From positions 19,032-55,701 of the forward strand of contig DAWM01000022.1 in assembly GCA_002505945.1 (NCBI GenBank): DNA of 36,670 nucleotides, read 5' to 3'. This document shows, piece by piece, positions 5,521 to 36,670 of the stretch. The notes under the pieces were generated by a model. That model ran no database searches. It saw only the letters and a program-made list of their open reading frames with translations, and was not told where the DNA came from. The stretch comes from Candidatus Woesearchaeota archaeon UBA119. Its GTDB lineage: Archaea; Nanobdellota; Nanobdellia; Woesearchaeales; UBA119. The position numbers and the translations under genes are program-made. Every line of letters starts with the position of its first letter. Position 1 is the first letter of the stretch.

Positions 5521-5609
5521 AACTAATATCCTTTTCTGAGGTCAAATGGAAAAATATAAATACTATTATTCAAATAGATTAACTAAATAGAGTGGTTCAG
5601 GTGAATAAG

Positions 5610-20545: not shown

Positions 20546-20582
20546 TGGCATGCTTAGAGTCTTCATTTATTGGGGTGAACAT

Positions 20583-23471
20583 ATGAGCGAAGAAACATCA
20601 AAGCAGAGAAAGAAACAAGATGATACAAAGGTTGTAATCAACATCCTCCTTTTTGTTGTCCCCCTTTTAATATGCTTATTTTTAAGGGTTACTCCATACT
20701 ATATTCCAATTGCAGACCAATGGGCTCATCAAACAGTATATAATTCTTTGCAGGCCCAGGTTTATTCCCGGCTTCAATCCTCTTATCCTGGCTTAGGACC
20801 ACAAGAACTGCAGGATGTTGTTAAGGAGGAAGTAAACAAAGTTATTCAAGAACAAGGAGCAGAGTTGGCACAGGCCGAGCAACAGACTGCTGAAGCATTT
20901 AGGAATAGGCTCAGAAATGATAACGGTACAACCTATCTCTTGGCGATTGATCCTTACTATTATCTAAGAAATGCTCAAAACATATTGGAGCATGGATATG
21001 AAGCAGATATTAAGACTGAGAGAGGTTATATTGATACTCATATCTTTGGAGGACTGCCTATCTCAGCAAGAAATGCTGCTCCTGACAAGATCCAGAATAT
21101 TCTTCCTTGGATTGAGGCATACCTTTTTAGAATTCTTAATTTCTTAGGTTTTAATATAGATTTGATGGCTGTTGCTTTCTTCACTCCAGTTATTCTTGGT
21201 TTATTAACGGTTATCATTGCTTTTTTTGTGGGAAAGGATATCTCAAAGAGCAATATTGGTGGATTCTTCGTTGCTCTTTATGTGGCAATCCACCCTTTCC
21301 TTCTTTCAAGATCCTTAGGCGGATTTGCCGATACCGATATTTTCAATGCTTTATTTCCATTGGCTTTGATTTTCTTCTTTTTCAAGCTTCTTGAATCAAC
21401 ATCACTTAAGAAAAAGCTTTTGCATTCTGCTCTTTTTGGGCTGGTGCTGGCAATATATACCAAAGCATGGGGGGGCTGGTGGTATACGTTTGATTTGATT
21501 CTTTTGTCAATTGTGATTTATGCAGTATACCGGATTTTCTTCTCCTTTATTCTCTTCAAAAAACATTCGAGAAGAACCCTCGGTTCAAATGTTCCGGGAA
21601 AGCTTTCCTCGGACTTAATCTCAATCGGACTGCTCTTGCTTTTCTCATGTATATTTGTTTCTTTATTTATTGGGTTTAATTCCTTCATCAATTCTCCTTT
21701 AGCAGCTTTAAGGGGAACAGAGCTTAAAGCTGTTTCCAAGGGCACTATCTGGCCAAATGTCTTTACAACTGTTGCTGAACTTAATCCTGGTGATTTTGGC
21801 AGCATTGTGCAGAATAACGGAGGCTGGTTAGCTGTATTGGTTGCTTTCTCTGGGATTGCATTGTTGTTGAAGAGGAAAGGAAGCATCATCGGTCCAAAGA
21901 TGGCCCAGTTCTTCTTGGTTCTCTTTTGGACATTAGCAACCATTTATACTGTTTATTCAGGGGTGAGGTTCAACCTGTTGATAGTGCCTGCCTTTGCATT
22001 GGCTTGGGGGATTGCTTCTGCAGTAATCATAAATCAAGGTTCTTTATGGGTTAAGAAATTAATAGATATCCCTGAGAAGACTGCCAAAGTTGTATTATTT
22101 GCTCTTCTGCTTTTGATTTTAGTGTTGCCGCAATCTACTGCTGGCGGAGACACCCAGAGTGGAATGTTACCTAATGCAATCAATACTGCAAGAGGTCATA
22201 CCCCTCAGATGGCAGATGCTTGGTTTGAAACCTTAACTAAAATCAAAGAGGAAAGCGAAGAAGATGCGATAATCAATTCATGGTGGGATTTTGGTCATTG
22301 GTTTAAGGCAATTGCAGACCGCCCTGTTACATTAGATGGTGGAATTCAGAATAATCCACAGGCTCACTGGCTGGGTAAACTCATGCTTACTAATGATGAG
22401 AGACTTTCTGTAGGGATACTAAGGATGCTTGATTGTGGTGCAACCTTAGCTTATGATACAATATACAACTTAACTAATGATGATCTGGAAGCCATTGATA
22501 CCTTATATAAAATCCTAGAGATGGACAGAGATGAGGCAAACTCTTTCCTGGAAGAGAAATTCGGTAAAGAAGATGCTTTAAGAGTTCTTAATTATAGCCA
22601 TTGCAACCCTCCTGAAAACTACTTTATAGCTTCAGAGGACATGGTAAGCAAGTCAGGCGTGTGGGCTCACTTTGGCTCATGGAATTTTACCAAGGCCAAG
22701 ATGTTTTATGAAGTCAAATCAAGGAAGATTGATGAGGCAAGGGAATTTCTGAAAGATAGATTTAATTTTAGTGAGGTAGATGCTGCAAATTATGTTACAG
22801 AGATAAGATCTGTTGAAAATGCAGATTACTGGGTAGCTCCTTGGCCAAGCTATGTTACTTCTGACTTCACTTTATGTCAGAAAATAAATGATTCTTGGGT
22901 AAGATGCATGAAATCCTTTAGTTCCAATCAGGGTGTAGTCTTAAATATAAATGTTGATGATATGCGGGCTTATGCAATGGTTAATCAAAACACTCAGCTG
23001 GAAGTGAGAAAGTTTGTTTTCAGCAAGGATGATGAGGTTTATGTAAGGAACAAGCCTGATTCTGGATTCAACTATGGAGTGGTCTTAAAGGAAGAAGGAG
23101 GACAATACAGTTTTGTCTTGTCTGACACTCAGTTGGCTGACAGCATGTTTACTCGATTATTCTTTTTAGATGGTGCAGGAACCAATTACTTTAACCTCTT
23201 TTCACACAAGACTGATATGTTTGGCAACGATATTTATGTATGGAAGGTTGATTGGAATCCGAATGAAATAAAGGATAACTTTCATATTGTTGAAGAAGAC
23301 GAAGCTGTTGGGTTGATAGATAATCAAGAGAGTACAGAACAAGAAGAAGAAACTGAGGTAGGAGGAGAAGAAGACCAGACCGAGAAAGAGGAAGTAGAGG
23401 ATATTGAAAACATTTCTTCCATAATTAATTCAACCGAGCAAATGAATCTAAGCCTGGAAAATGGCAGCTGA
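20583..23471 (+). CDS. aglB: archaeal oligosaccharyltransferase AglB (STT3 family)
   Basis: WWDFGHW (the WWDYG catalytic motif), an EL1 LAIDPYYYLR block (compare the STT3 DPYFNYR block), a 13-TM-like N-terminal half, and a soluble C-terminal half. The start is moved to MSEETSKQ (ATG at 20583) on SD and promoter geometry. Confidence 0.9.
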   Translation: MSEETSKQRKKQDDTKVVINILLFVVPLLICLFLRVTPYYIPIADQWAHQTVYNSLQAQVYSRLQSSYPGLGPQELQDVVKEEVNKVIQEQGAELAQAEQQTAEAFRNRLRNDNGTTYLLAIDPYYYLRNAQNILEHGYEADIKTERGYIDTHIFGGLPISARNAAPDKIQNILPWIEAYLFRILNFLGFNIDLMAVAFFTPVILGLLTVIIAFFVGKDISKSNIGGFFVALYVAIHPFLLSRSLGGFADTDIFNALFPLALIFFFFKLLESTSLKKKLLHSALFGLVLAIYTKAWGGWWYTFDLILLSIVIYAVYRIFFSFILFKKHSRRTLGSNVPGKLSSDLISIGLLLLFSCIFVSLFIGFNSFINSPLAALRGTELKAVSKGTIWPNVFTTVAELNPGDFGSIVQNNGGWLAVLVAFSGIALLLKRKGSIIGPKMAQFFLVLFWTLATIYTVYSGVRFNLLIVPAFALAWGIASAVIINQGSLWVKKLIDIPEKTAKVVLFALLLLILVLPQSTAGGDTQSGMLPNAINTARGHTPQMADAWFETLTKIKEESEEDAIINSWWDFGHWFKAIADRPVTLDGGIQNNPQAHWLGKLMLTNDERLSVGILRMLDCGATLAYDTIYNLTNDDLEAIDTLYKILEMDRDEANSFLEEKFGKEDALRVLNYSHCNPPENYFIASEDMVSKSGVWAHFGSWNFTKAKMFYEVKSRKIDEAREFLKDRFNFSEVDAANYVTEIRSVENADYWVAPWPSYVTSDFTLCQKINDSWVRCMKSFSSNQGVVLNINVDDMRAYAMVNQNTQLEVRKFVFSKDDEVYVRNKPDSGFNYGVVLKEEGGQYSFVLSDTQLADSMFTRLFFLDGAGTNYFNLFSHKTDMFGNDIYVWKVDWNPNEIKDNFHIVEEDEAVGLIDNQESTEQEEETEVGGEEDQTEKEEVEDIENISSIINSTEQMNLSLENGS

Positions 23472-24135
23472 AAATCAAGATTTTTTTGTGGTGCTTCCTG
23501 CCTATAATGAGGAAGGAGCAATAGAAAAAACACTTAAGGATGTTCTTAAGTATTCTAAGCCAGAAAATGTAATTGTAGTAGATGATGGCTCACAGGATGA
23601 AACATTTAAGGAAGCTAGAAGATGCAATGTGAGAGTTCTGAGGCATGTGGTTAATTTAGGCAAAGGCGCAGCTTTAAAGACCGGCTGTGATTATGCTATT
23701 AAGAGACATGCCAATAAGATAGTTTTGATGGATAGCGATGGCCAGCATGACCCATCCTATATCCCAAAATTTGTTTCTTTGTTGGATAAGTATGATGTTG
23801 TTCTTGGAGCAAGAAAAAGAACTAAGGACATGCCTCACACAGCTAAATTCGGTAATCTCTTCTTTGATGTCTTTGTAAAGTTCTTTCTTGGTAAAGAGAT
23901 AATAGATACTCAAGGGGGTTTTCGTGCTTTCAGGGCTGAGAAATATCCTTTGTTGAAATGGAAGTCTTCGGATTACACAGTTGAGACAGAGATGCTTGTT
24001 CACATAGTCGAGCAGAATCTTAGCTATACTCAAATCCCAATAAAAACAATATACACTGACAACTATAAAGGTACTACTGTGCTTGATGGATTTAAGATAG
24101 TTTTTAATATATTGAAGTTCAGGTTATTTGGTTAG
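23461..24135 (+). CDS. GT2 glycosyltransferase, dolichyl-phosphate hexose synthase-like (DPM1/AglD/AglJ-type)
   Basis: FFVVLPAYNEEGAIEKTL, VVDDGSQDET, LGKGAALKTG, and LMDSDGQHDP (DxD). The ATG overlaps the aglB 3' end by 11 nt. Confidence 0.85.
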   Translation: MAAENQDFFVVLPAYNEEGAIEKTLKDVLKYSKPENVIVVDDGSQDETFKEARRCNVRVLRHVVNLGKGAALKTGCDYAIKRHANKIVLMDSDGQHDPSYIPKFVSLLDKYDVVLGARKRTKDMPHTAKFGNLFFDVFVKFFLGKEIIDTQGGFRAFRAEKYPLLKWKSSDYTVETEMLVHIVEQNLSYTQIPIKTIYTDNYKGTTVLDGFKIVFNILKFRLFG

Positions 24136-24168
24136 TATGCTTATTAAGAAGAAAGAGGTGCAGATAAG

Positions 24169-24552
24169 ATGATTGGAATTCAGATATTTGCGGTGTTCTT
24201 TTCTTTGTTTATGGCTTATATAGCTTATATTAATTTCAGGAAAAAGATAATCTCTGGTTTGGCTTTTGTTTTGTGGGAAGCATTGTGGGTTGGCTTCATA
24301 GTAGTGGTTTTGTTCCCTTCTATTATGGATCCTATCCTTGAAGTGTTGCATTTCTATAGGCTTTTTGATATGCTTACAGTAGCTGCTTTTGCCTTTCTTG
24401 TCGTATTTTCCTTTTATAATTTCATTCTGGCTTCCCGAAACAACAAGAAAATAGAAAAGCTTGTAAGAAGAATAGCAATAGGAGGAGAGCAAGACCCCAG
24501 CAGCTCTTCTACAAGGGAAAAAGATAAAAAGGCTAGTAAGAAAAAAAATTAA
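24169..24552 (+). CDS. small polytopic membrane protein (DUF2304-like GT2 partner)
   Basis: Three to four TM helices (IQIFAVFFSLFMAYIAYINF, LAFVLWEALWVGFIVVVLF, LFDMLTVAAFAFLVVFSFYNFIL) and a basic tail. AGAGGTG lies 8 nt before the ATG. This size, topology and position after a GT2 gene are what I recall for DUF2304. The family call is from memory only. Confidence 0.5.
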   Translation: MIGIQIFAVFFSLFMAYIAYINFRKKIISGLAFVLWEALWVGFIVVVLFPSIMDPILEVLHFYRLFDMLTVAAFAFLVVFSFYNFILASRNNKKIEKLVRRIAIGGEQDPSSSSTREKDKKASKKKN

Positions 24553-25535
24553 CTCCTATCAATATAGTTTACTCTCCATAAATCGCACGTTCTACATAGT
24601 TTATGGCTGTTATGGTTTTTTCTGAAATCCTTAAATTTCTTGCTGTCCCATATCTCTTTAAGGTTCTTGTCCTTTAGGTTGTCCATCTTTAAAGCAGGGA
24701 GAAGGCAGCAGGGAGTAACATCGCCTTCCACATTTACATATGCGTAGTTGAAAAGCCTTAAACATCTCTTGCCGAACATACCCAGAGTATGCTTTGCCAA
24801 TGGGTAGGCAGTTCTTACAAAGCCCTTTCCAACCCCGTATTGAATCATATCCGCCTGCAGCCCAATCTTGTCTGCGTGAGAAAATATTTTCTTGACCATC
24901 TCCTTTTCTTCCTTTAAGGAAGGCCTAGGCATACCTGGAGAGAATTCCTGCAATACCCTGGAAAGATTTAATCGTTCTGCGCCAACGCTTTTGGCAAAAT
25001 CACATATTGCTATTAGGTTGGAAACAGGTTTTTCTAAGATGGATTGGATTACGATAGCAGGCCTCTTATTCATCTTGGACAAAGCCCTTATGTTATCAAG
25101 TGTTTTCTTATTCATATGACCCCATTCATTCTCCTCATCAACAGAGTCTACAGAAAAAGTAATGCTGTCAATCCCTGCTTTAACAAGGTCATCCCTCATC
25201 TTCTGATTCAACAACAAGCCATTCGTGGTAAGCCTTACCTTTTTGTTCTTGAACTTACCAAATCGGACCATCTCAGCTAAATCCTTATGGGTTGTAGGCT
25301 CACCCCAACCGGTTAAGATAATCTCTTTTACTCCCCCCAGCTTATTAACAATCTTCTTGAATAAAGAAAGATGCATCTCTTTGTATTTGACAGGAAGCTT
25401 CTTCCTCGGGCACATCTTGCAGTCTAGGTTGCAAAGGTTAGTAATCTCCAGCTGAACTGTTTCAGGGACCTTCGGCTGAATACAAAAGATTCTGCCAATA
25501 TATTCCTTGAAAGGATTCATGTTTATATCAACCAT
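24549..25535 (-). CDS. radical SAM enzyme with a C-terminal SPASM/twitch-like cysteine domain
   Basis: CNLDCKMC (C35-x3-C39-x2-C42), TGWGEPT (GGE SAM-binding motif), and a TIM-barrel-length core. The C-terminus carries C-x12-G-x4-C-C ... C-x2-C (CLRLFNYAYVNVEGDVTPCC...CRTC), matching the first half plus the CxxC of the SPASM consensus. The ATG overlaps the upstream GT2 stop by 13 nt. Confidence 0.85.
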   Translation of the reverse strand: MVDINMNPFKEYIGRIFCIQPKVPETVQLEITNLCNLDCKMCPRKKLPVKYKEMHLSLFKKIVNKLGGVKEIILTGWGEPTTHKDLAEMVRFGKFKNKKVRLTTNGLLLNQKMRDDLVKAGIDSITFSVDSVDEENEWGHMNKKTLDNIRALSKMNKRPAIVIQSILEKPVSNLIAICDFAKSVGAERLNLSRVLQEFSPGMPRPSLKEEKEMVKKIFSHADKIGLQADMIQYGVGKGFVRTAYPLAKHTLGMFGKRCLRLFNYAYVNVEGDVTPCCLLPALKMDNLKDKNLKEIWDSKKFKDFRKNHNSHKLCRTCDLWRVNYIDRS

Positions 25536-26545
25536 TTAATTATTTTCCAATGGAGGTTAAGTAACGGGCTGAGAAACCAATCAATGCCCTTGCTCTTAAT
25601 CATCTCAAACTTCAAGTGACCTACAAAGTTCTTCATGAACTCTTTGTCCTCAATTCTTCTTTCCTTCTGTATCTTCCTTCTTTGCTCTTTAATCTCTTTC
25701 TTGTACTTTTTAAACTCTGAGTAACTCTTAAGCTTCTTAGGCAGCCATCCAGAAACCAGAGCAAAATAAAGCGTGGCGAGCTCTATTAAAAGGGAAGCAG
25801 GGGCAATCAGCCATAATGTCTTGTTAGAATAATACTTCTTAATCAAGAACCTTCTATGGAATTCTAAATCATAGAACTTGTCAGGATTCCTCTTGAAATC
25901 ATATTTGTGGTAGGCGATTGCATTCGGATTGAAAAGAAGCTTGTAGCCATATATCCTTATTCTGAAGCACAAATCAACATCCGAGTGATACATAGGAATG
26001 TTCTCATCAAAGAGCCCCACTTCATCCAGGATGCTCCTTTTTATCATGCAGATGCCACCGAAATCAGTCTCCTCAACCTTCAGTTTCTTGTCTTTTTCAT
26101 TCAAATGTTTGGGCCATCCGAAACCCATATAATTGAATATCCCCCCAGCATAGTTGATATGCTTTGGCTTATTATAGAAGAGTAGTTTAGCAGAGCAGGC
26201 CGCTGCTTTCCTCTTTTCAAGTAGCTCATACATGTTTTTTATGCAGTCCTTATCAATCTTCATATCATCGTTGAAGAATGCTATATACTTGGCTTTTGAA
26301 GCCCTTATACCAACATTTACTGCAGGCCCAAACCCAATGTTCTTTTTGGTGTTTATTATCCGAAGCTTACTGTATCTCTTTTTTGGAAATCTCTCCTTCA
26401 TAAACTCCTCAGAGCCGTCTGTTGAGCCATTTATTATCAGGATTACTTCCGTATCCTCAAAGGACTGTTCTAGAAGAGAAGAAATACATTCCTCAAGATA
26501 CTGCTTTCCGTTCCAAGAAACCACAATCGCTGAAACCTTAGCCAT
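25523..26545 (-). CDS. GT2 glycosyltransferase with a C-terminal membrane segment
   Basis: VSAIVVSWNGKQYLEECISSL, INGSTDGS, NIGFGPAVNVG, and FFNDDMKID (DxD-like). A TM helix is near the C-terminus (LWLIAPASLLIELATLYFALVSGWL). A TATA-like gtattttaaaaag lies ~50 nt upstream on the reverse strand. Confidence 0.85.
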   Translation of the reverse strand: MAKVSAIVVSWNGKQYLEECISSLLEQSFEDTEVILIINGSTDGSEEFMKERFPKKRYSKLRIINTKKNIGFGPAVNVGIRASKAKYIAFFNDDMKIDKDCIKNMYELLEKRKAAACSAKLLFYNKPKHINYAGGIFNYMGFGWPKHLNEKDKKLKVEETDFGGICMIKRSILDEVGLFDENIPMYHSDVDLCFRIRIYGYKLLFNPNAIAYHKYDFKRNPDKFYDLEFHRRFLIKKYYSNKTLWLIAPASLLIELATLYFALVSGWLPKKLKSYSEFKKYKKEIKEQRRKIQKERRIEDKEFMKNFVGHLKFEMIKSKGIDWFLSPLLNLHWKIIKWLI

Positions 26546-26653: not shown

Positions 26654-26920
26654 TCATATCAAGCCAATGTTCTCCATAGGCACGCAGCAGAATAAGTCTC
26701 CGCAGCCCATACCTTTGTATGCTTTTCCCTGCTCGGAATCGCATTCCTCTCTTGTCTCAACACACTTACCTTTGTACTGATTTTTGCAAGGATTCTCCAC
26801 CTCATTTATAATGTTCTCTCTGAATACCTGGAATAAAAGGTATATCACGGTAATCAAAACAACAATAATCAAAACCCATTCAACTGCATTAAACATAAAG
26901 CTTGATTTCTTGTTTTTCAT
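26654..26920 (-). CDS. small Cys-rich membrane-anchored or pilin-like protein, paralog B (88 aa)
   Basis: MKNKKSS + hydrophobic helix (AVEWVLIIVVLITVIYLLF), then PCKNQYKGKCVETREECDSEQGKAYKGMGCGDLFCC (C-x7-C-x6-C-x12-C-x4-CC). GAGGAG lies 8 nt upstream of the ATG, and the gene starts 14 nt after paralog A. Confidence 0.65.
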   Translation of the reverse strand: MKNKKSSFMFNAVEWVLIIVVLITVIYLLFQVFRENIINEVENPCKNQYKGKCVETREECDSEQGKAYKGMGCGDLFCCVPMENIGLI

Positions 26921-26934
26921 TTTATAATCTCCTC

Positions 26935-27195
26935 TTATTTTTTAACCATGCTGGAGGCGTTGAAACAGCAAAACTTATCACAGCCCATCCCCCTTCTAGT
27001 AATCATACCTTTTCCTGCACATTCATCTTCTCTTTCAACGCATTTTCCTCCATTATAGTTGTTACATTCAATATCAAACCTGTCGCTTCCTTGGTTGAAA
27101 AGATTGATTGCGATAAGCACAACTACAACAAGCGCGATCACGGCTAAAACCCATCCCACTCCGGATTGTATTATCTGTGATTTCTTATTTTTCAT
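26935..27195 (-). CDS. small Cys-rich membrane-anchored or pilin-like protein, paralog A (86 aa from the ATG at 27195)
   Basis: MKNKKSQ + hydrophobic helix (GVGWVLAVIALVVVVLIAINLF), then ECNNYNGGKCVEREDECAGKGMITRRGMGCDKFCC (C-x7-C-x6-C-x12-C-x3-CC). The track start is 27219. I prefer the ATG at 27195 because it reproduces the MKNKKS N-terminus of paralog B and overlaps the giant-ORF stop (AACAATGAAAAATAA), suggesting translational coupling. The start remains uncertain. Confidence 0.6.
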   Translation of the reverse strand: MKNKKSQIIQSGVGWVLAVIALVVVVLIAINLFNQGSDRFDIECNNYNGGKCVEREDECAGKGMITRRGMGCDKFCCFNASSMVKK

Positions 27196-30100
27196 TGTTG
27201 AAAAGTTCATAGTCTGCATTTTTTAAATAAGTTATATCTCCCACATAGCTCTCTAACATAGCATTTAGTTTATCTTCAACAACATCTTTGGTAGAAGCAA
27301 CCATAAACAATACACTCTCTCCACCATATTGGATCTTTTTCATATAAAAATTCTTAAAAGACCAGGCAATAAGTCCATAAGCAGGTATTGTATCCTTGTT
27401 GCCACAGAAACCATTTTGGATTGTTTCACTGAATTCCATCTCATCCTGTTTAATTGATATTGGAATTTCGCATTTCCCCTGGAACTCTTCTTTAAATTCG
27501 GCAATCCCCTCTAGACAGAAACCTTCAGATTGGTAGAAATTAATGCAAGGTGAAATCACTGGGTTTTCAACAGGTTCCGAAATAAAGATTAAGTATGTCT
27601 TGTCGTTATTTTCCGTGAATAAAGGATACTCATTCTCCTCCACAAAAAGGGTTATATCTCCAGTTCTCTCAAGTTTAATTTTAGTTTCCTTTACATTTAC
27701 ATTCTTCAACATCTCTTGAAACTTTAAATTAACCATTTTATTCTTGTTGAGGTCTTGTTTTAGTCGCATGTCAAATATGTTGAGCATTAGACGAGTTTGT
27801 AAACTATTCCAATTTGTTATAACCCAAGTATAAGGAGCAATTATAATCTGTCCTGTTTCTTTTACCAGCTCCCCTGCCTCATCTACAAATGCCTTAAATG
27901 TATTGATATCCCTTTTTCTGAAATCCATCGTGAGTACTCTCTTTCCTACCTCGTCCTTGGAAACTTTGAATAATACATTACCATCATCGTCAATGTTCAG
28001 GATTTGTTCTGATGCTTTTACTCCCTGGACGAGCTCTATAATATAGGTTTTCTCTAAGAACTCCAAAACTATCTCTTCTGTTCCAAAATCAATTTCCCGC
28101 CTCTCGCCCTCAATATCCTCAATAACTATTTTATTTATTGTATACTTAGTAGGTGTTTTTTCTTCTTGATTCCTCAGATATAACCCTAAAGCCCATCCAG
28201 GATCATCAATAGGATTCGTATATTCAAGACTTTTTATAGCATTGAAGACCTGTTCTGTCTTAAGTATTTCGCCTCCGCCGTTTGCGAGGATGTCTTTTAT
28301 CTTTGATATAACATCTCCAACTGCCATGCACTTAGGCTCATCAATATTTGCAAACCAAGGGATATCGCAGCTGCCCTCCATTGAGTGAGTAGTCTCGCTT
28401 ACAAAGAGAGAGTCTGGGTCGTACTCATAACATTCATTATCCTTGTCATAATAATACTTTGAAAACTTCAACTTTGTTTCTCCTGAGAACACAGCCTCCC
28501 TATTGCCGTCCGCTAGCTTTATCTTTGACTCTAATTTATCTGAGAATTGTGTGAAATATTTATCGTTGGATTCCAATTCAAAAATTTCTTCTCCATTTCT
28601 GATGATAAGTTGTTCATCCGAGGGGATAGGGAATTTTACCAATGTGAAATTATATGTATCTTCATCTTCTATGTAATTTATACATTCATTATCATTGATT
28701 CTTTTATTAATATCAGAAAGCGTTTCAGAGCAACCCTCATAAGCAAGCTCATTATTTCCTTTCAAATCAAAATGTTCTTTAATTCCGTCGTGCCCGCCTT
28801 CGCCTTTTTCTAATACAGTTAGAATTACATCCTCATCGCCTTGAGAACAATTCCTCACAAGAACCAGCAAGCTCCCTGTTTCACTAACCTCCCCATCTAA
28901 TATATTTACAATATTGTCTGATGTTTGGAGTTCATACAGATTCTCTCCTGAAGAATACATAAGTCCCCCTCCTTGAGAGACAACCCTAAAGCTTCCCTTT
29001 GGAAATGCTTCGGATGCATAACCTACAAACGCTTTGATGTTTTTATCGTTAAAAAACTTATCAAGTGCGTCAAGTACTGCAGTGTCAATTTCCTTTTGAA
29101 TCTCCTTACTGCATTCCTCAAGTTCCTTATTTGTTTCAATTGTTAACCCATTATATTCATCCTTCTTGAACTCAATCTCTTGGTCATTATTATAAACTCC
29201 ACCAATAGCCCAATCTTCTTTAATATAACATTCGCTTGCAGAGTTCAAGTTATGGTTTCTTATAACTGTTGGTATGTTACCTGTAAGCACAACTTCTCCT
29301 TCAACATTAATTCCTGTGCTTCCCCTTGCTAACTCATAAATCTCTCCGTTAAGATAATATCTCAATACTGCCTTTTTGTTTAAGAATACAATCTTAAGCT
29401 GCCCTAACTGCCCTCTTTCATCGAACAAGTTTTCATGTCCTGAGAAATATTGTGATTTGATGCTATTCAAATCAAGGATAATTCGTGTAGCATAATTTTC
29501 GTTATTGTTTTCAGCATCTTTTATATCAGTAATAAGTTGAGCGAAACTATCCTTCAGTTCTTGATTTATAGTTCCTACTTGATCAAACTCCATTATCAGT
29601 TTGTTTCCTTCTATCTTTAGGACAACATACCCTGAAGCAGGTATAGAAGCAATAGGATTTTGTCCATTGTTAAATTCAATGTTATACATGCTTTCTTTCA
29701 GGTCTATTCTTACCTGTTGCTGCGTATCTGTTTTTCTTCTTAGGAAAATTTTGTCGGAAGTGGGATAATCTATTATAACAGAATTGATTTCTTCAGAGCT
29801 AATGTAAAGCTCTTGGTTTATCTCTTCTCCGCCAACGAACTTAACTCCAAACTCCAGTTTATTATTTGGATATGCGGATTCAAAGTAATCCACTGCCTTA
29901 AAAAATTTCTGAATACCCATGGTTATTTCTCCCCCATTATCCAAAAGACTTTTTATCTTGCTTATTGCATCTCCTACCTCAGAACACTTTGGTTTTATAG
30001 GTGAAAGAGAAGCATCATCAGCGGTATAACATGTGTTTCCTACCATGTCTAAGGATGTTGGAGTTATATAAATGTTAGAATTGCCTTGAGCATAGCATCC

Positions 30101-33100
30101 TTCTTGTTGGAAATATTTTGAGAAAAGCAAGACGTTTCCAGATGAAAGAATACTAGACTCTTCCCCTTGAGTTACCCAAGGAGTCCTCATCTTCTTGGAA
30201 TATTGCGGATAAAATCTATAATCAGAATCAACCACGAATTGTTCATTTCCTTCCATAAGGGAAATGCTTTCTCCATTTTCTCTACCTGGCCATTTAACTA
30301 TGGTGTAATCGGAATTCCAAAGATTATCTTCAACACAGCTTATTCTGGCATTAATAGCATCCAGCGTAGGAGAACACTTTTCGTGGTAATAGATTGGCGT
30401 ATATTCTGTGGTTATAATGGAATCTATGTGGTTCTTTAGTTTAGTGTATTCATCTTCATTTGCATCTATCAAATCAACTATTACCTCTCCGTGTTGATTT
30501 TGATAGGAGCACTCCCTTAAAAATAAGAGGAAGTATTCGCCTGCCGGTTTTTCAATAATTCTCACATTATTATTGAAGTCTTTCAAGATAATTGTTTCCT
30601 GTCCCGTTATCCCATAGTTGAAGTCGCCATATCTTATTGAGAATCCTTTCATACTGTAATCAAAGTTAATAGTAAACTTAGGAGTATCATCATCTATTTT
30701 AATAATTAAGGCTTTCCAATTATTATTGAAGAACTCGGAGATAGATTCTCCAAGCTCCTCGGTTTTATCTTCTCCTCCAATCTTCTCACAATTATCCATA
30801 TGGCTTTCGATTACCCAGAATGGTTTTTCCCTTTTGATCCTAGAGTTATCATAGCTTATAATCTTCCATTTCTGAAGCTTGTCATAGCACTCTATATCCG
30901 TTCCATCTGATTTCTTCTCTGTTCTTGTTTCAAAATTGGATATGATTATGTTGTTGTTCTTACTCAAAACATAATTTTTTTCAGATGCTAAATCCAGTCC
31001 AACTTTCATTATATGGGTTGTACCAGAGGACAAGTCCACCATGTTGTTTTTAAATGTGATAGTAAGATGCCCAAGATTCCCATTAAAGTAAACTTCATTA
31101 ACCTTGTCGTGATCAATGATTATGCTCATAACGTCATCAGAGTAATCTGATAGCTTTCCATTTAAATCGTTTACAAAACTGCTGAAAGAATTCCTTATTT
31201 CATAAAACTCAGACTCCTCTCCCATAAAGTTCATCGTAATGGTGTCTCCTTCTCGTTTTAGGACCATTTTCTCTGAATTAGCGAAGTCTCCAATGCTTGC
31301 AGGGTTTGTTATTTGGATTCGATAAAAAGTATTTGTTGAGGATAAATAGAAGATGGTTTCTTCATCGCCAAGTTCTATTACCTTCCTTTCATACTCGCCA
31401 TTCTCTTTTTGATATATTATTCTTACATGCTTTATGCCTGATGTTTTAACTCCGGGGTTTGTTTGTGCACCGCCGTCATTTCCTTTAAAGAACACAGAAA
31501 ACTTCGGTTGGTCTTCATCTTCAGCTTTGTTGTATTCAATATTGTCTATGGCTTCGAAGAAATCGTTTGTATTTATCTCAGCCGATCCTCCATTCTCAAT
31601 TATATCTTTTATCGTAGTTATTGTTTCGCTTCCTTCAGGTTCTTTTTCATCCCAATACTCGCAAGCAGACCCGCTAGTTGCTCTCAAATCAGTGATATAG
31701 AGATAATTATCATTGCCCTTTAACACTCCACCTGTTTCATCAATATATCCCTTTGACATCTTAATTCTCTTGTTTCCTTCAATAGACAGTTCTAATAAGG
31801 AATAGTAACTTTCAGAATCTTGTGCTTTCATGATTATTTTGCCAATAGGTTTTTCTAGTTTGTCGCTGTATTGAGGGAAATATCTGTTGGCAGAAGTCAG
31901 TTTGAACTCATTCCAATAAGGCTGGATACTTAGTTTTTCTGTTTTCTCAAACTCAAGGTTTATTAAGGCATAATCTTTTTCTCTGTTTAATAGGTCATTG
32001 GCGCAGGTTATCCCTTTATTAATATTTGTCAAGCTCTCAGAGCAGCGTTCATATTGTACCACTCCATCCCCACTATCAAAATACTTTCTGAGCTTTGAAT
32101 TCTCTGCCTTATCAGAAGCAACCACATCCAGAATAACATTATTGCTGTCATATGAGCAGTTTCTGACAAGCTTGAGTATTCCTCCTTTTTGCATATATCC
32201 TTCCTTTATATTGACATTCTGCCCCGGTGTCTCAATATCAAACTTATCTCCTTCCTTGCTTAAATAAATTAGAGATTCACCGCTTTTCTCAAAAACACCG
32301 CCTAAATAACCATCTTCATTGAAAAATATGCCTGCCTTTCTATTCTTATCAGCAAAGAAATTATCAATTTCGCCAATAAAGGATTCAACATCTTGTTCTT
32401 TAACGAGTCCACTGCATTCAGGCAGGGAGTATTTATCAATCTGAATTCCATAAAGTGTTGTCGTTGTCTTTTTGTCATTAATGTCCTCAAGTCCTGTGTC
32501 TGTAACCTGTCCGCCTCCTAATTTCCAATTGATGGGAGTATAGCAGTATTTGGAGTTCTTTTCTGAAAGGTCAAAGTTTCCTATAATCAATGGATTGTTT
32601 GTAAGGGTGCGAGTTTCATCGGCATGTATGTAGTAAGAATCCCTACTGGCAATCACACCGCCACTGTTAAGATATTGGTATTTGAGAGTTGCCTTCTGAT
32701 TAGAAAATTCAATCATCAGCGTTTCATCTTCAAACAATCCTTTGTCTTCTTTAAAGTACTCGTTTGCGATATTATCGAGTGTAAGTGAGAAGAATGTCGG
32801 CTCGTCTTCATGGCTGTAAGCGAGGTTGTTAAGTTTAGTTGTAAAATCCTTAAATCCTTGCTTTAGTCTTTCTTCATTTATTACCTGCTCTTCTTTCCCT
32901 TTCTCGAATCGAATTTCAAACCTCCAAAAAATTCTTTCTTCTGCCTTCTTCTTTATATGCACCTTGGATGATGGGACGATGCCTGTGCTGATCTCGTCTT
33001 CTCCATAAATCTCAATTTTCAGAGTGTTAAGAAAATTAGCTTTTTCACCGTTTTCTAACACATATTCTTCAGTGTCTCCTGCTATATTAGGATAAAAGAT

Positions 33101-36100
33101 AATTGGTTCTAAATAAAGCCGATAACTTTTTTCTTCGCCGTTAGAGTAACCTACATCCAAGACATGAGACCAAGGCTTTTTTATGAAATTGAGAGCTTTA
33201 AAGAAATACTCTGCGCGCTCAATTGTCGCTTCATTAACAAAATTGTCGTGCGCTAAAACCGTCTTAATCTTTTTAATCGCAAGCCCAACCTCATCGCATT
33301 TTGGTTTTATGGGTGAAAGGGAAGCATCATCAGGGGTATAACATGTGTCTCCTACCATATTTATCTCGGTTGAACCCACAAAAATAAGATCCTCATCTTT
33401 CTTGTAACAATAGTATTCTGTGGAGTAATTATATTTTGTAAAGAGCAGTTCCTTTTCTTCAGTCCCTGAGAAAAGATTGTCTGCATTTCCCTTTATTTCT
33501 AATGGTCTGCTAAACTCTTTGGAATATTGCGGATAATACCTATCATCAGAATTGACTACAAATTGTTTATTCCCTTTCATGAGAGAAACGCTTTCTCCCT
33601 CTTTTTTACTAGGCCATTTAACTATGGTGTAATCTTCAGCGCCTAAATATTCATCAACACAGTCTATTCTTGTGTTTATGTTGGATATAGTATCTAAACA
33701 GGTTTCATGATAAAAGACCTGGTTGGCCCTTCCTTCGCTTTCCCTTATAGAAATAATCTTGTCGTTTAGGCTGTTATACTCCTTATTCCCTTCTGCTTTT
33801 CCAACAAAATCAACAACTACGCTCTCTTTTGGATAGGAGCAGTTCCTAAGAAAAATAAGGAATCCTCTCTTTCCTGCTCCTTTAAGAATGATATCCTTTA
33901 CTCCGTTGGTCTCAATTGTTTCTCCTTTTAATAAGAACGTATCAGGATTATTCCCATTATCAAATGTTGTGAGTTCTAATCCAGGAGTTTCTTCTGTGAG
34001 GTTAATAACCAGTACTTTCCAATTGTCTTCTGCGAAAAAGGACTCTACCTTATTCACAATCTCATCAATCATTGTCTCTTTTTGAACCTCAGTACAGCTC
34101 TTTATATTAGTTGGACCAGAATGGATTGCGGTTGCCCTTGGTTTATTTGCCCCATCCATTACCCAGTTTCCTTTATTTGTTTTCCTATAGCACCTTTTGT
34201 TATCATCGTCATCGTTCTCAATCATATAATTGCGCAGAAGAGTATGATAATTAAAATCAAAACCATTAGCTAGCTTCTCTCCATAATTACTCTGAGCTAT
34301 GAAATTAGTGCCTGTTGAATATTCCTTGCTATAAAAAAGCAGCTTAGCTTCCTTTTCCAGGAATTTGATTCTATATTCCTCAAGATTACCAAAGAAGTAG
34401 TTGTCAACTACCTCATTATAGTTCAGCGTGATGTTCATGGCTTCACCGGAATCTTCATTTTCCTCGATTGTACTGTTTAGAGCTTCTATGAAATTATAAA
34501 AGCCATCAATGTATTCACATTCAGCGATTGAGATTGATTTGATCGTTTTCACGGCATCTTCTCTGTTCTGATATTTATCTTCCGTAATGACTCTCCAGCT
34601 ATCTATCATCTCATTACAGGGTTTGTTATGGGTTAAGGAAATGATGTAGTTTCTTAGCCCGAAAATCTCTTTTAAGTTATATTCTGAAGTGGATTCTACA
34701 CCAATCTTTTTTAGATAAATCTTATTCTCTTCTCCTTTAAGTGTAATTTTACCGTTGGCTACAAAGATATTAAAGATATTTAATATTCCTTTAAAGCATT
34801 CCTTATTTATCAGGTTATAATTGAGCACAATATCCATTGGTTTATCATTATTAACTTCATTTTCAATCTTGCTTTTTAATCCATTTACAAACTCGTCAAA
34901 GTAAACCTTTGCAATATCCCAAGCAGTTTCCTCTCCCTTAAAATTTATTACGAGCACGGGCTCTTCATTAATCTGTTTTAGTTCTAATGCAACTTTATTA
35001 GAATAAAGGATATCGATGGGGTCTCTATTTGTGATCTCTATCCCTTTGTAATCTTCTATTAAGAACCTAATTATTGTTCTTTGCGTAGGTTCAACAATCC
35101 TTGCTATCACTTCGGTTTCCCCTGAATTAAGAGGGTCTACATTTTCCTCGTTGAGTATGGCCACTTTTTTTATTGGGTATGGTGTTGATTCTTCAGAAGT
35201 GATGAACTTAGCCACAAGTTCAGAGTCCTTTCCATCATATTCTAAGGTTTCAAGCGCATTAAGGAATTCATCAGTGTTAATAACTCGTCTGCCTTTTCCT
35301 TCCAAGGCTTCCTTGATTAGAGGTATTGCATTCCCGACATCCTCGCATTTCTTATTATAGATAGAACTTAGTTCTCCTTTGAAAGAATTGCAACTGCCTT
35401 CAAGACTTTCTTCAGTTTTACTAAGGTATATATTGGAATCATCCTTTTGATAGCATTCTTCAACATCTTTAAGATAGTATCTTGAGAATTTTATTTTTTC
35501 GTTTTTTCCTGCCTCAATGAACCCCTTATCTCCATTTATTTTTATATCTTCATCCATTTGCATTTGCTTGCTGAATTGAGGATAATATCTCAAAGAAGAG
35601 GTTAGATTAAAGTGTTTTTGTTCCTCATTAATCCTCGCTTTCTCATCTTCCCCAATTCCAAACTTAACTATAATATAATCGTTATCCTCTAATTCTATTT
35701 TTTCATTCACACAATCAATGTATTCGTTCAATTTCTCCAAGCTACCGGAGCACATCTCTTTGTGGAATACATTAGGCGCAGCGTTTTTTGCTTCTCTTAT
35801 ATCTTCTAATTTTGTTTTTAGATTATTGAATTCAGCTTCATCTTCATCCTCCCCGATGAAGTCAACTATTGCTGCTCCTGAGGGTTTTGAGCAGTTTCTC
35901 AGCAGCACCAAATAGCTTTGTCCTTTAGGTCTCTCTATAATACCCGACTCAGAACTATCTTTTAATACCAAGCTTTCCTGATTGATCTCAACATTAATTT
36001 CCTTACTCATAATATAATTACCTAATGTTGTGAACTCCAAATCAGGGGCATTCTTATCCAAAAATATAACCAAAGCCTTCGTTTTCTTATTGTTAAAGAA

Positions 36101-36670
36101 TTCATTCATTTCTGTCTCTATTTCTTCAATATTTGCTTCAGTTACCATATCCACACATTTGTGAAGACTTCTCTCCACAGCATCAGAGATTGCTTCTTTA
36201 TTAGGGCTACTATCATATGCTACAACCCATTTGTCTGTTACTTTTCTATAACAAGACCCATATGTTGCGCTTTTTTCTACAAGATAGTTCTTAAGTACTG
36301 AATTGCAATTAAAAAGATATGGTTCTTCTGTTCTATCAGCAATTAGCAGGATTGAAACACCTATCTCTTCTGATAACACAACCTTATCATTTTCTTTATT
36401 TACCAATTCTGCTTTGCCACTTGAAAACTTTATTTCATACCTATCAAGGTTTCCATAGAAATATTCTTGTTTAATCTTATTATAGTTTAGTTTTATTTGT
36501 TTTCCAGGAGCATTTGCTTTATCTTTGTTGATTCTGGTTATCTCTTCTTTCAGGTCGTCTATGAATCTTTCAAATCCTTTTTTAGCGTAGTACTCAGGAA
36601 TCTTCAGGCAGTCTTGGTGCGGCTCGCATTGAACATCTTCTTGCGCTCCCTCAAATCTAGAACACATGTA
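27185..36670 (-). CDS. giant modular Cys-bearing protein (at least 3,160 aa; N-terminus outside the window), putative secreted or surface protein of unknown family
   Basis: Uninterrupted reading frame from the right window edge to the TAA at 27187-27185. The first in-frame ATG is only 3 nt from the edge, so the ORF is 5'-truncated. It has a strongly periodic ~550-aa module structure with conserved motifs and Cys positions (see repeat features). There is no TM helix in the visible part. Confidence 0.85.
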   Translation of the reverse strand, partial: YMCSRFEGAQEDVQCEPHQDCLKIPEYYAKKGFERFIDDLKEEITRINKDKANAPGKQIKLNYNKIKQEYFYGNLDRYEIKFSSGKAELVNKENDKVVLSEEIGVSILLIADRTEEPYLFNCNSVLKNYLVEKSATYGSCYRKVTDKWVVAYDSSPNKEAISDAVERSLHKCVDMVTEANIEEIETEMNEFFNNKKTKALVIFLDKNAPDLEFTTLGNYIMSKEINVEINQESLVLKDSSESGIIERPKGQSYLVLLRNCSKPSGAAIVDFIGEDEDEAEFNNLKTKLEDIREAKNAAPNVFHKEMCSGSLEKLNEYIDCVNEKIELEDNDYIIVKFGIGEDEKARINEEQKHFNLTSSLRYYPQFSKQMQMDEDIKINGDKGFIEAGKNEKIKFSRYYLKDVEECYQKDDSNIYLSKTEESLEGSCNSFKGELSSIYNKKCEDVGNAIPLIKEALEGKGRRVINTDEFLNALETLEYDGKDSELVAKFITSEESTPYPIKKVAILNEENVDPLNSGETEVIARIVEPTQRTIIRFLIEDYKGIEITNRDPIDILYSNKVALELKQINEEPVLVINFKGEETAWDIAKVYFDEFVNGLKSKIENEVNNDKPMDIVLNYNLINKECFKGILNIFNIFVANGKITLKGEENKIYLKKIGVESTSEYNLKEIFGLRNYIISLTHNKPCNEMIDSWRVITEDKYQNREDAVKTIKSISIAECEYIDGFYNFIEALNSTIEENEDSGEAMNITLNYNEVVDNYFFGNLEEYRIKFLEKEAKLLFYSKEYSTGTNFIAQSNYGEKLANGFDFNYHTLLRNYMIENDDDDNKRCYRKTNKGNWVMDGANKPRATAIHSGPTNIKSCTEVQKETMIDEIVNKVESFFAEDNWKVLVINLTEETPGLELTTFDNGNNPDTFLLKGETIETNGVKDIILKGAGKRGFLIFLRNCSYPKESVVVDFVGKAEGNKEYNSLNDKIISIRESEGRANQVFYHETCLDTISNINTRIDCVDEYLGAEDYTIVKWPSKKEGESVSLMKGNKQFVVNSDDRYYPQYSKEFSRPLEIKGNADNLFSGTEEKELLFTKYNYSTEYYCYKKDEDLIFVGSTEINMVGDTCYTPDDASLSPIKPKCDEVGLAIKKIKTVLAHDNFVNEATIERAEYFFKALNFIKKPWSHVLDVGYSNGEEKSYRLYLEPIIFYPNIAGDTEEYVLENGEKANFLNTLKIEIYGEDEISTGIVPSSKVHIKKKAEERIFWRFEIRFEKGKEEQVINEERLKQGFKDFTTKLNNLAYSHEDEPTFFSLTLDNIANEYFKEDKGLFEDETLMIEFSNQKATLKYQYLNSGGVIASRDSYYIHADETRTLTNNPLIIGNFDLSEKNSKYCYTPINWKLGGGQVTDTGLEDINDKKTTTTLYGIQIDKYSLPECSGLVKEQDVESFIGEIDNFFADKNRKAGIFFNEDGYLGGVFEKSGESLIYLSKEGDKFDIETPGQNVNIKEGYMQKGGILKLVRNCSYDSNNVILDVVASDKAENSKLRKYFDSGDGVVQYERCSESLTNINKGITCANDLLNREKDYALINLEFEKTEKLSIQPYWNEFKLTSANRYFPQYSDKLEKPIGKIIMKAQDSESYYSLLELSIEGNKRIKMSKGYIDETGGVLKGNDNYLYITDLRATSGSACEYWDEKEPEGSETITTIKDIIENGGSAEINTNDFFEAIDNIEYNKAEDEDQPKFSVFFKGNDGGAQTNPGVKTSGIKHVRIIYQKENGEYERKVIELGDEETIFYLSSTNTFYRIQITNPASIGDFANSEKMVLKREGDTITMNFMGEESEFYEIRNSFSSFVNDLNGKLSDYSDDVMSIIIDHDKVNEVYFNGNLGHLTITFKNNMVDLSSGTTHIMKVGLDLASEKNYVLSKNNNIIISNFETRTEKKSDGTDIECYDKLQKWKIISYDNSRIKREKPFWVIESHMDNCEKIGGEDKTEELGESISEFFNNNWKALIIKIDDDTPKFTINFDYSMKGFSIRYGDFNYGITGQETIILKDFNNNVRIIEKPAGEYFLLFLRECSYQNQHGEVIVDLIDANEDEYTKLKNHIDSIITTEYTPIYYHEKCSPTLDAINARISCVEDNLWNSDYTIVKWPGRENGESISLMEGNEQFVVDSDYRFYPQYSKKMRTPWVTQGEESSILSSGNVLLFSKYFQQEGCYAQGNSNIYITPTSLDMVGNTCYTADDASLSPIKPKCSEVGDAISKIKSLLDNGGEITMGIQKFFKAVDYFESAYPNNKLEFGVKFVGGEEINQELYISSEEINSVIIDYPTSDKIFLRRKTDTQQQVRIDLKESMYNIEFNNGQNPIASIPASGYVVLKIEGNKLIMEFDQVGTINQELKDSFAQLITDIKDAENNNENYATRIILDLNSIKSQYFSGHENLFDERGQLGQLKIVFLNKKAVLRYYLNGEIYELARGSTGINVEGEVVLTGNIPTVIRNHNLNSASECYIKEDWAIGGVYNNDQEIEFKKDEYNGLTIETNKELEECSKEIQKEIDTAVLDALDKFFNDKNIKAFVGYASEAFPKGSFRVVSQGGGLMYSSGENLYELQTSDNIVNILDGEVSETGSLLVLVRNCSQGDEDVILTVLEKGEGGHDGIKEHFDLKGNNELAYEGCSETLSDINKRINDNECINYIEDEDTYNFTLVKFPIPSDEQLIIRNGEEIFELESNDKYFTQFSDKLESKIKLADGNREAVFSGETKLKFSKYYYDKDNECYEYDPDSLFVSETTHSMEGSCDIPWFANIDEPKCMAVGDVISKIKDILANGGGEILKTEQVFNAIKSLEYTNPIDDPGWALGLYLRNQEEKTPTKYTINKIVIEDIEGERREIDFGTEEIVLEFLEKTYIIELVQGVKASEQILNIDDDGNVLFKVSKDEVGKRVLTMDFRKRDINTFKAFVDEAGELVKETGQIIIAPYTWVITNWNSLQTRLMLNIFDMRLKQDLNKNKMVNLKFQEMLKNVNVKETKIKLERTGDITLFVEENEYPLFTENNDKTYLIFISEPVENPVISPCINFYQSEGFCLEGIAEFKEEFQGKCEIPISIKQDEMEFSETIQNGFCGNKDTIPAYGLIAWSFKNFYMKKIQYGGESVLFMVASTKDVVEDKLNAMLESYVGDITYLKNADYELFNNEK
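27188..27889 (-). repeat. giant-ORF C-terminal 234-aa region (aa 2927-3160), possibly a degenerate partial module
   Basis: It begins with a module-start-like FVDEAGELVKE..MVNLKFQEM and then diverges. It contains 5 Cys (SPCINFYQSEGFC..GKC..GFCGN), no TM helix and no anchor motif that I recognise. Confidence 0.4.
27890..29536 (-). repeat. giant-ORF module 5 (aa 2378-2926, subtype B)
   Basis: LITDI..ILDLNSIKSQYFSG, SECYIKEDWAIGG, LEECSK..LDKFFNDKN, LVRNCS (aa 2605), YEGCSETLSDINKRI, KYFTQFSDKLESKI, GSCDIPW..PKCMAVGDVISKIK, LTMDFRKRD. Confidence 0.7.
29537..31177 (-). repeat. giant-ORF module 4 (aa 1831-2377, subtype A, closest to module 2)
   Basis: FVNDL..IIDHDKVNEVYFNGNL, IECYDKLQKW, FLRECS (aa 2051), YHEKCSPT..ISC, DYTIVKWPGRENGESISLMEGNEQFVV..RFYPQYSK, VGNTCYTADDASLSPIKPKCSEVGDAISKIK. 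Confidence 0.7.
31178..32845 (-). repeat. giant-ORF module 3 (aa 1275-1830, subtype B)
   Basis: FTTKL..TLDNIANEYF, KYCYTPINWKLGGG, LPECSG..IDNFFADKN, LVRNCS (aa 1502), YERCSESLTNINKGITC, RYFPQYSDKLEKPI, ITMNFMGEE. It has only 6 of the 8 module Cys. Confidence 0.7.
32846..34492 (-). repeat. giant-ORF module 2 (aa 726-1274, subtype A)
   Basis: FIEAL..TLNYNEVVDNYFFGNL, KRCYRKTNKGNW, FLRNCS (aa 941), YHETCLDT..IDC, DYTIVKWPSKKEGESVSLMKGNKQFVV..RYYPQYSK, VGDTCYTPDDASLSPIKPKCDEVGLAIKKIK. Confidence 0.7.
34493..34891 (-). repeat. giant-ORF truncated module (aa 593-725; first ~130 aa of a module only)
   Basis: FVNGL..VLNYNLINKECFKGIL..LRNYIISLTHNKPCNEMIDSW reproduces the module N-terminus. It then joins directly to the start of module 2 (FIEAL at aa 726). 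Confidence 0.6.
34892..36565 (-). repeat. giant-ORF module 1 (aa 35-592, subtype A)
   Basis: Landmarks: FIDDL..KLNYNKIKQEYFYGNL, GSCYRKVTDKW, LLRNCS (aa 257), HKEMCSGSL..IDC, RYYPQFSK, GSCNS..KKCEDVGNAIPLIK, LVINFKGEE. Confidence 0.7.

Follow-up and report, generated by a model that had tools for sequence, protein, structure and literature searches.

Archaeal type IV pilins and related class III proteins (DUF361/Class_IIIsignal), such as the Epd pilins of Methanococcus maripaludis that EppA processes at K-G|Q, carry a basic leader that ends in K or R plus a small residue, often followed by Q (PMC4371748, PMC2910488). Two tandem genes whose products have similar N-termini, here called mini1 and mini2, lie directly 3' of a giant open reading frame (ORF) in a 36,670-nucleotide stretch of DNA from Candidatus Woesearchaeota archaeon UBA119 (contig DAWM01000022.1, positions 19,032 to 55,701). 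The whole stretch is referred to below as the window. The products of the two genes (the minis) resemble archaeal type IV pilins in their leader, in the hydrophobic helix of about 20-30 residues that comes right after the site and is the best-conserved part, in their small size, and in their occurrence as tandem paralogues within clusters of other such proteins. We put at about one half (0.5) the probability that the minis serve a giant-protein surface apparatus as very small type IV pilin-like subunits or as partners, probably trimmed after K-K-S. As pilin-like surface proteins, they are unusual for their tiny six-Cys, defensin-patterned head and for their link to giant proteins in DPANN archaea.

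Operons of minor and major pilins that include a large tip adhesin, such as the bacterial FimU-PilVWX-PilY1, the type II secretion system (T2SS) genes GspGHIJK, and the Com pili, provide a second point of comparison. In L023, L025, and L027, three loci with distant relatives of the minis, a giant protein is likewise followed by four mid-sized pilin-like proteins and then by at least one very small, highly conserved protein. These clusters also recall modular pilins such as Streptococcus sanguinis PilB (PMC8179133) in that the N-terminal helix recurs on enzymes, for example on peptidoglycan hydrolases. However, the clusters have no sequence similarity to these systems and no assembly genes, and the analogy concerns gene sizes and N-termini only.

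The head of the minis invites comparison with the beta-defensin fold of vertebrate beta-defensins, crotamine, tick carboxypeptidase inhibitor domains, and helianthamide. The Cys pattern of the beta-defensin fold (trans-defensins) is C-x(4-8)-C-x(3-5)-C-x(9-13)-C-x(4-7)-CC, and its disulfides connect C1-C5, C2-C4, and C3-C6. Defensins and crotamine typically have a cationic surface, although some members of the fold do not. The minis share with this fold a six-Cys pattern that ends in CC and has similar spacings, a G-G-x-C motif before Cys2, and a predicted short helix plus three strands.

Both minis are real genes under purifying selection. The locus was found on eight other public contigs at 99-100% identity (strain variants), and of the distinct changes that these show within the two ORFs, six are synonymous and one, S37N in the linker, is non-synonymous. 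By our own arithmetic, if about one quarter of random changes were synonymous, the probability of at least six synonymous changes among seven would be about 0.001; therefore, both ORFs are coding. All single-nucleotide differences among strains within the stretch encoding the mini2 head are synonymous, and the mini1 protein is identical on seven public contigs. At least eight changes fall in the 108-nt non-coding spacer between the minis and the adjacent family 2 glycosyltransferase (GT2) gene. A promoter and terminator scan was uninformative.

Sequence comparison identifies mini1 and mini2 as paralogues (38% identity, BLASTP E=1e-17). Both contain MKNKKS, a hydrophobic helix that includes W-V-L, and the GKCVE and GMGC blocks. 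A preliminary description of this DNA had reported two same-strand ORFs of 86-88 aa directly 3' of the giant gene, a matching Cys spacing (C-x7-C-x6-C-x12-C-x3/4-CC) with shared GKCVE and GMGC blocks, a mini1 ATG that overlaps the giant stop, and a GAGGAG Shine-Dalgarno (SD) sequence with a 14-nt gap before mini2. Coordinates, translations, and direct reading of the sequence agree with each of these statements (Table 1). The syntenic locus L009 retains the 11-nt overlap of giant and mini1 (ATGAAGAATAA) and has AAGGTGATTTT, with an SD-like GGTGA, ahead of the mini2 ATG. In L018, the upstream large ORF and the mini overlap by 4 nt. The mini1 orthologue in L009 (P0003) is 61-62% identical, and the mini2 orthologue (L009:10268-10531) starts MNNKRASF. 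Starts further upstream in the mini1 ORF, at 27219 or 27210, are possible, but no upstream ATG exists in the L009 orthologue. Thus, MKNKKS is the likely start of mini1. The small ORFs and their Cys pattern are conserved in the homologous loci.

The minis are members of a previously undescribed family that occurs widely in DPANN archaea (Woesearchaeota, Pacearchaeota). Word-indexed protein searches with each mini gave matches in the same organism only. A profile built from the two sequences and run as a full HMMER scan against 1.84 billion representatives recovered 15 proteins of 75-92 aa with the same architecture, themselves representatives at 50% identity. With a 17-sequence profile, at least 264 clusters (90% identity) of 75-127 aa were found at E<=1e-3, none of them with a Pfam domain; the clusters with a named source come mostly from Woesearchaeota or Pacearchaeota genomes. 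A contig scan of genomes with an alignment of the closer relatives matched two genomes, and a metagenome scan for the family yielded no new members. Pfam and NCBIfam searches with the minis, the distant members, and the neighbours, at E up to 10, returned nothing meaningful, and the weak TadE, Flp1_like, PilX_N, and DUF948 lines in these scans reflect helix composition only. The searchable literature held no description of the mini family. The earlier statement that no described family with this architecture is known therefore stands, with no Pfam or NCBIfam model and no account in the literature searched.

Across 48 aligned members, the six Cys are invariant and the Gly before Cys2 is nearly so, with a spacing range of C-x6-7-C-x3-7-C-x9-20-C-x3-10-CC. 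The N-terminus of the main branch is highly uniform, M(N)KK[A/G/S]QG[I/L]S[M/L]N[V/T]IIIAAIAL[L/I]VLV[I/V]L. The window minis represent a rarer, diverged branch of the family.

Strong contextual evidence favours a prepilin-like N-terminus. Every member that has the motif carries G, A, or S directly behind the K/R pair, mostly with Q as the next residue. The published sites in Methanococcus Epd pilins are K-G|Q and R-A|Q, with EppA-type processing (PMC4371748, PMC2910488). The window minis have K-K-S, and their Ser is aligned in the same column as the Ala and Gly of the main branch (P0033, P0041); between mini2 of the window and mini2 of L009, this Ser changes to Ala. Conservation, expressed as mean top-residue frequency with Cys excluded, is 0.63 for the N-terminal helix versus 0.31 for the head. 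In type IV pilins, too, the N-terminal helix is better conserved than the head. The AlphaFold2 (AF2) model of mini1 places a long, uninterrupted hydrophobic helix directly after the leader, with a predicted local distance difference test (pLDDT) score of 88-95 in its core. Other proteins encoded in the same loci have signal peptidase I-type signals, and the lipoproteins of the window carry lipoboxes. Because these signals coexist on other proteins, K-K-G/A/S followed by a long helix constitutes a distinct class.

Several observations weigh against this assignment. Class III signal, archaeal pilin, and archaellin N-terminal models gave no match at E up to 10, and the sole notable match of the N-terminal profile in the PDB, an archaellin N-terminus (5tfy, E=0.25), is not significant. 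Ser, which occupies position -1 in the window minis and is frequent there in their subfamily, is not canonical among published sites, where G or A is found (PMC4371748). The window minis have no acidic residue at +5 and no QxSxE, and their helices deviate from the main-branch consensus QGISMNVIIIAAIALLVLVIL. Unlike archaeal type IV pilins, they bear a head of only about 40 residues, in which three disulfides are presumed, and extracellular disulfide formation in a probably anaerobic organism is an assumption. No gene for a FlaI/PilB-type ATPase, a FlaJ/PilC-type platform protein, or an A24 peptidase was found within about 10 kb at any locus examined. The prepilin-like reading offered in the preliminary description thus gains from the G/A/S rule, the conserved helix, and the pilin-like neighbours, and loses from the lack of a curated model match and of nearby assembly genes. 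Membership of the minis in the archaeal type IV pilin/class III class is not established, but a pilin-type subunit is the best-supported mechanism.

A possible, though clearly less probable, explanation is that the minis are unprocessed single-pass membrane proteins (N-in, C-out) whose disulfide-bonded ectodomains act as docking, anchoring, or chaperone-like partners of the giant surface protein, and that no filament forms. A basic N-terminus, one long helix, and a small head would suit such a role, as would the tight translational coupling to the upstream large gene, which is kept in L009 and L018, and the missing pilin model match and assembly genes. Nevertheless, the strict G/A/S after K-K and the very high helix conservation would be unexpected for a simple anchor, and the distant family members lie in pilin-like arrays, several kb from giants that are unrelated to that of the window. 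The idea of an anchor had also leaned on a giant protein with "no anchor of its own", but this statement is wrong: the window cuts off the N-terminus of this protein. The giant ORF runs off the window end, and TAC rather than a stop codon precedes its first ATG. Its orthologue (L009:498-10011, crossed by a 100-N scaffold gap) begins MEFQKSTLLGLILVVVAVILVVAAASPSY, an N-terminal hydrophobic helix, and the relatives with a single module start with MKPIIAELIIVLIVVAAL (L014) and MRKMKTILAELIIVLIAVAAL (L022). Because the window truncates the giant N-terminus and the orthologue begins with a helix, the giant is credited here with an N-terminal hydrophobic helix of its own, and the minis are therefore not needed as its anchor. 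Of the proposed anchor or docking role, the coupling to the upstream large gene remains in its favour, whereas the helix of the giant orthologue speaks against it.

The gene neighbourhoods bear on the same choice. The related loci are from genomes labelled Candidatus Woesearchaeota. L009, L010, and L011, together with the lineage of L014, L015, L016, and L022, keep the order of large protein, mini, mini, GT2, radical SAM/SPASM, DUF2304, GT2, AglB, TrmB, and Lgt. In L014 and L022, a protein of 915-922 aa with a single module of the window giant takes the place of the large protein (BLASTP E=1e-21), and the number of modules in giant-type proteins ranges from 1 to about 5 depending on lineage. 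Upstream of the module protein, L014 and L022 encode proteins of 277, 298, 186, and 403-416 aa and a Cys-free mini of 53-60 aa. All of the upstream proteins start with KKG or RKG plus a hydrophobic helix except the 186-aa one (MNRTFGVLIVVII).

A 52-aa homologous mini stands ahead of the giant in L009. These Cys-free minis (52-60 aa, phmmer E=3.8e-14), which consist of K-G or KKG plus a helix and end in FRFGR or FRFSS, lie directly upstream of the giant or module gene at positions 333-491 of L009, 6717-6899 of L014, and 3561-3722 of L022. With Cys-free minis upstream and Cys minis downstream, the large gene is thus flanked on both sides by genes for mini pilin-like proteins.

The distant members in L023, L025, and L027 occupy long clusters of same-strand genes that follow those for giant proteins (8808 and 1209 aa in L023, 2060 and 1114 aa in L025, 1469 and 1525 aa in L027). 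Almost all of the 10-18 proteins that follow start with [KR][KR]-G/A plus a hydrophobic helix, and 2-4 of the genes encode tandem Cys minis. Several cluster proteins have homologues among the proteins encoded upstream in L014 (E values between 1e-5 and 1.8e-17). The window locus thus represents one variant of a gene-cluster type that is conserved in Woesearchaeota. The L023 and L025 clusters end in peptidoglycan hydrolases (Amidase_3, M23, SLT, 3D). The hydrolases at 16446-20243 of L023 and 14532-17453 of L025 begin with [KR][KR]G/A plus a hydrophobic helix, like the pilin-like proteins. Pilin-type N-termini on hydrolases suggest enzymes of the modular pilin type aimed at bacterial cell walls.

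The association with one particular giant is narrow. Giant modules and minis co-occur in the closest lineages only; the large proteins beside the minis in L018, L019, L023, and L025 have no similarity to the window giant by phmmer, and those of L027 are also unrelated to it. In L018, the mini pair lies between an unrelated large ORF and GT2. The unrelated large proteins in L018, L019, L023, and L025 rule out a fixed partnership of module giant and mini as a family-wide rule.

The heads raise an alternative that we regard as unlikely, namely that they are defensin-like effectors (antimicrobial or host-directed toxins, or protease inhibitors such as that of ticks) that are tethered at the surface or released and target the host cell, and for which the helix would be an export signal only. 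The preliminary description did not mention the beta-defensin/crotamine-type Cys pattern. A head-only profile of 29 sequences, searched against all PDB sequences, gave 13 matches at E<=10, and nine of the top ten are beta-defensin-fold chains. They include tick carboxypeptidase inhibitor (E=8.6e-4 for 2k2z, 0.041, and 0.058), gallinacin-11 (2.7e-3 for 6qeu, and 0.19), and crotamine (0.035, 1h5o); gallin, helianthamide, and defensin-BvL are further matches. Pfam searches with single heads hinted at Myotoxins (2e-4), Inhibitor_I68 (0.003), and Defensin_beta (0.015), each in 1-2 of the 29 members only. The peptidoglycan hydrolases encoded in the distant clusters would also accord with an effector function.

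However, the defensin-fold matches are all marginal and Cys-driven. The heads fit the beta-defensin Cys pattern, with the spacers of the window minis (7/6/12/3-4/0) slightly outside its range at the second and last positions. In the AF2 models (pLDDT 77 for the whole protein and 74 when only the head is modelled), one long helix is joined to a small beta-rich head with a short helix and three strands, a predicted secondary structure that is compatible with the beta-defensin fold. Foldseek searches of the PDB with the full model and with the head-only model returned no match at E<1. The minis further differ from known members of the fold in their archaeal source and in the fusion of the head to a pilin-like helix. 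The mean net charge of the heads is -2.7, with 34 of 48 at -2 or below and one of 48 at +2 or above. Because the heads are acidic, unlike the cationic defensins and crotamine, a defensin-like antimicrobial action is unlikely; moreover, the most conserved part of the protein is the helix and not the head. The likeness to beta-defensins is thus real at the level of the sequence pattern; it does not demonstrate homology, and convergence is the more likely explanation.

The radical SAM/SPASM gene two genes downstream underlies a further proposal, a very improbable one, that the minis are precursors of ribosomally synthesized and post-translationally modified peptides (RiPPs), comparable to the six-Cys SCIFF/ranthipeptide precursors, and are modified by this enzyme. 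Six Cys within about 45 residues and the conservation of the gene in L009, L014, and L022 would fit. However, a GT2 gene intervenes, and the enzyme lies inside an AglB/GT2/DUF2304 glycosylation block: GT2 and radical SAM/SPASM are both parts of an AglB N-glycosylation cluster (20550-26545). The enzyme scores below every NCBIfam maturase cut-off, including those for peptide maturases; its best match is the tungsten-cofactor oxidoreductase maturase, with 134 bits against a cut-off of 380. The export or anchor helix would also place the Cys head outside, away from a cytoplasmic radical SAM enzyme. No radical SAM neighbour was found beside the distant family members, and its restriction to a narrow subfamily argues against the substrate relationship that had been suggested. 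Least probable of all is the reading, also raised earlier, in which the minis confer immunity to a toxin domain at the C-terminus of the giant (polymorphic-toxin logic). Their position directly 3' of a giant with a unique C-terminal region would fit. However, this C-terminus has no toxin domain match and, at 53% identity over 950 aa between the window and L009, it is conserved and not variable. The family is also present in many loci that lack a giant of the window type, and the Cys-rich head is predicted to be extracellular.

For minis that work like pilin-type subunits, we infer the following course of processing, disulfide formation, assembly, and partnership with the giant. Each mini would comprise three parts: a short basic leader whose last residues are K-K-[S/A/G], then a long and well conserved hydrophobic helix, and finally a head in which the six Cys hold about 40 residues together. 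The preprotein would insert with its N-terminus in the cytoplasm and its head outside, and a prepilin-type peptidase would cut off the basic leader after the small residue. The mini helix would then pack with the helices of other pilin-like proteins of the locus, possibly including the N-terminal helix of the giant. Such packing would yield a short filament, a pseudopilus, or a stalk close to the membrane, on which the giant adhesin-like protein is carried and the compact heads with their disulfide bonds are exposed. Co-production would be secured by the start/stop overlap with the giant gene and by the SD sequence that leads the second mini gene. The neighbouring AglB/GT2 cluster may glycosylate the assembly.

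The adjacent AglB/GT2 cluster suggests a glycosylated assembly, as do the N-x-S sequons that some members have in their C-terminal tails. In several proteins of the family (P0003, P0012), an N-x-S/T sequon stands just behind the CC pair, and the mini1 tail contains FNASS (26944-26952). A bolder extension, tentative and rather doubtful, would make the minis the smallest known type IV pilins, DPANN-wide, with beta-defensin-like heads of about 40 residues and three disulfides. They would polymerise into a surface filament or cap it, and this filament, bearing giant adhesins and pilin-fused peptidoglycan hydrolases, would be the host-attachment or attack apparatus of episymbionts of the Woesearchaeota type.

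Table 1. Features of the window discussed in the text
Feature	Position	Strand	Description	Basis
Giant ORF	27185..36670	(-)	more than 3160 aa, N-terminus beyond the window; about 5 diverged modules (550-690 aa each) and a C-terminal region of unique sequence	translation, internal repeats
Overlap of giant ORF stop and mini1 start	27185..27195	(-)	11 nt, ATGAAAAATAA	read from sequence
mini1	26935..27195	(-)	86 aa, starts MKNKKSQ, stop codon included	translation
mini1 helix	27088..27183	(-)	residues 5-36, predicted single long hydrophobic helix (GWVLAVIALVVVVLIAINLF) after the K-N-K-K-S leader	AF2 model
mini1 six-Cys head	26965..27066	(-)	residues 44-77, C-x7-C-x6-C-x12-C-x3-CC	spacing read directly
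mini1-mini2 spacer	26921..26934	(-)	14 nt, GAGGAGATTATAAA, with Shine-Dalgarno-like GAGGAG	read from sequence
mini2	26654..26920	(-)	88 aa, starts MKNKKSS, stop codon included	translation
mini2 six-Cys head	26684..26788	(-)	residues 45-79, C-x7-C-x6-C-x12-C-x4-CC	spacing read directly
GT2 glycosyltransferase	25523-26545	(-)	downstream of the mini pair, conserved in close relatives	Pfam
Radical SAM/SPASM gene	24549-25535	(-)	two genes downstream of the minis, conserved in close relatives	Pfam, NCBIfam

Beyond the mini locus, the window has about 37% G+C and encodes the replication factor C (RFC) small subunit, aRF1, TrmB regulators, and the AglB/STT3 oligosaccharyltransferase. Three paralogues of about 320 aa carry bacterial-type lipoboxes (LFISAC, LVLTAC, and LLLTGC; 3548-4531, 4582-5520, and 5592-6575, plus strand). 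A gene for the prolipoprotein diacylglyceryl transferase Lgt (18513-19331, plus strand; PF01790, E=2.6e-72) is conserved in L009 and L014. A 478-aa protein with no family match (16945-18381, minus strand) combines a signal-like helix at its N-terminus with an acidic ectodomain, a single transmembrane helix, and a long C-terminal tail rich in K and E, and its orthologue keeps its place beside Lgt in L009. The labels "uncultured Methanosarcinales archaeon" and "Nitrospiraceae bacterium" on contigs with DPANN-type loci (L009/L021 CAZOKS010000007.1; P0013) look like mis-binning or mislabelling.

How uncultured Woesearchaeota and Pacearchaeota attach to and exploit their hosts is largely unknown. 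The analysis defines an unannotated family that is abundant in these archaea, with at least 264 clusters at 90% identity, and links it to conserved gene clusters that encode pilin-like proteins and giant surface proteins, together with peptidoglycan hydrolases in some lineages. The minis are small and expressible, and they offer concrete targets for work on leader cleavage, filament formation, and the disulfide fold. If the head is truly beta-defensin-like, the family would represent either a striking convergence or an unexpectedly deep origin of a fold thought to be confined to animals, and a pilin head of this kind would be the first such fold outside animals.

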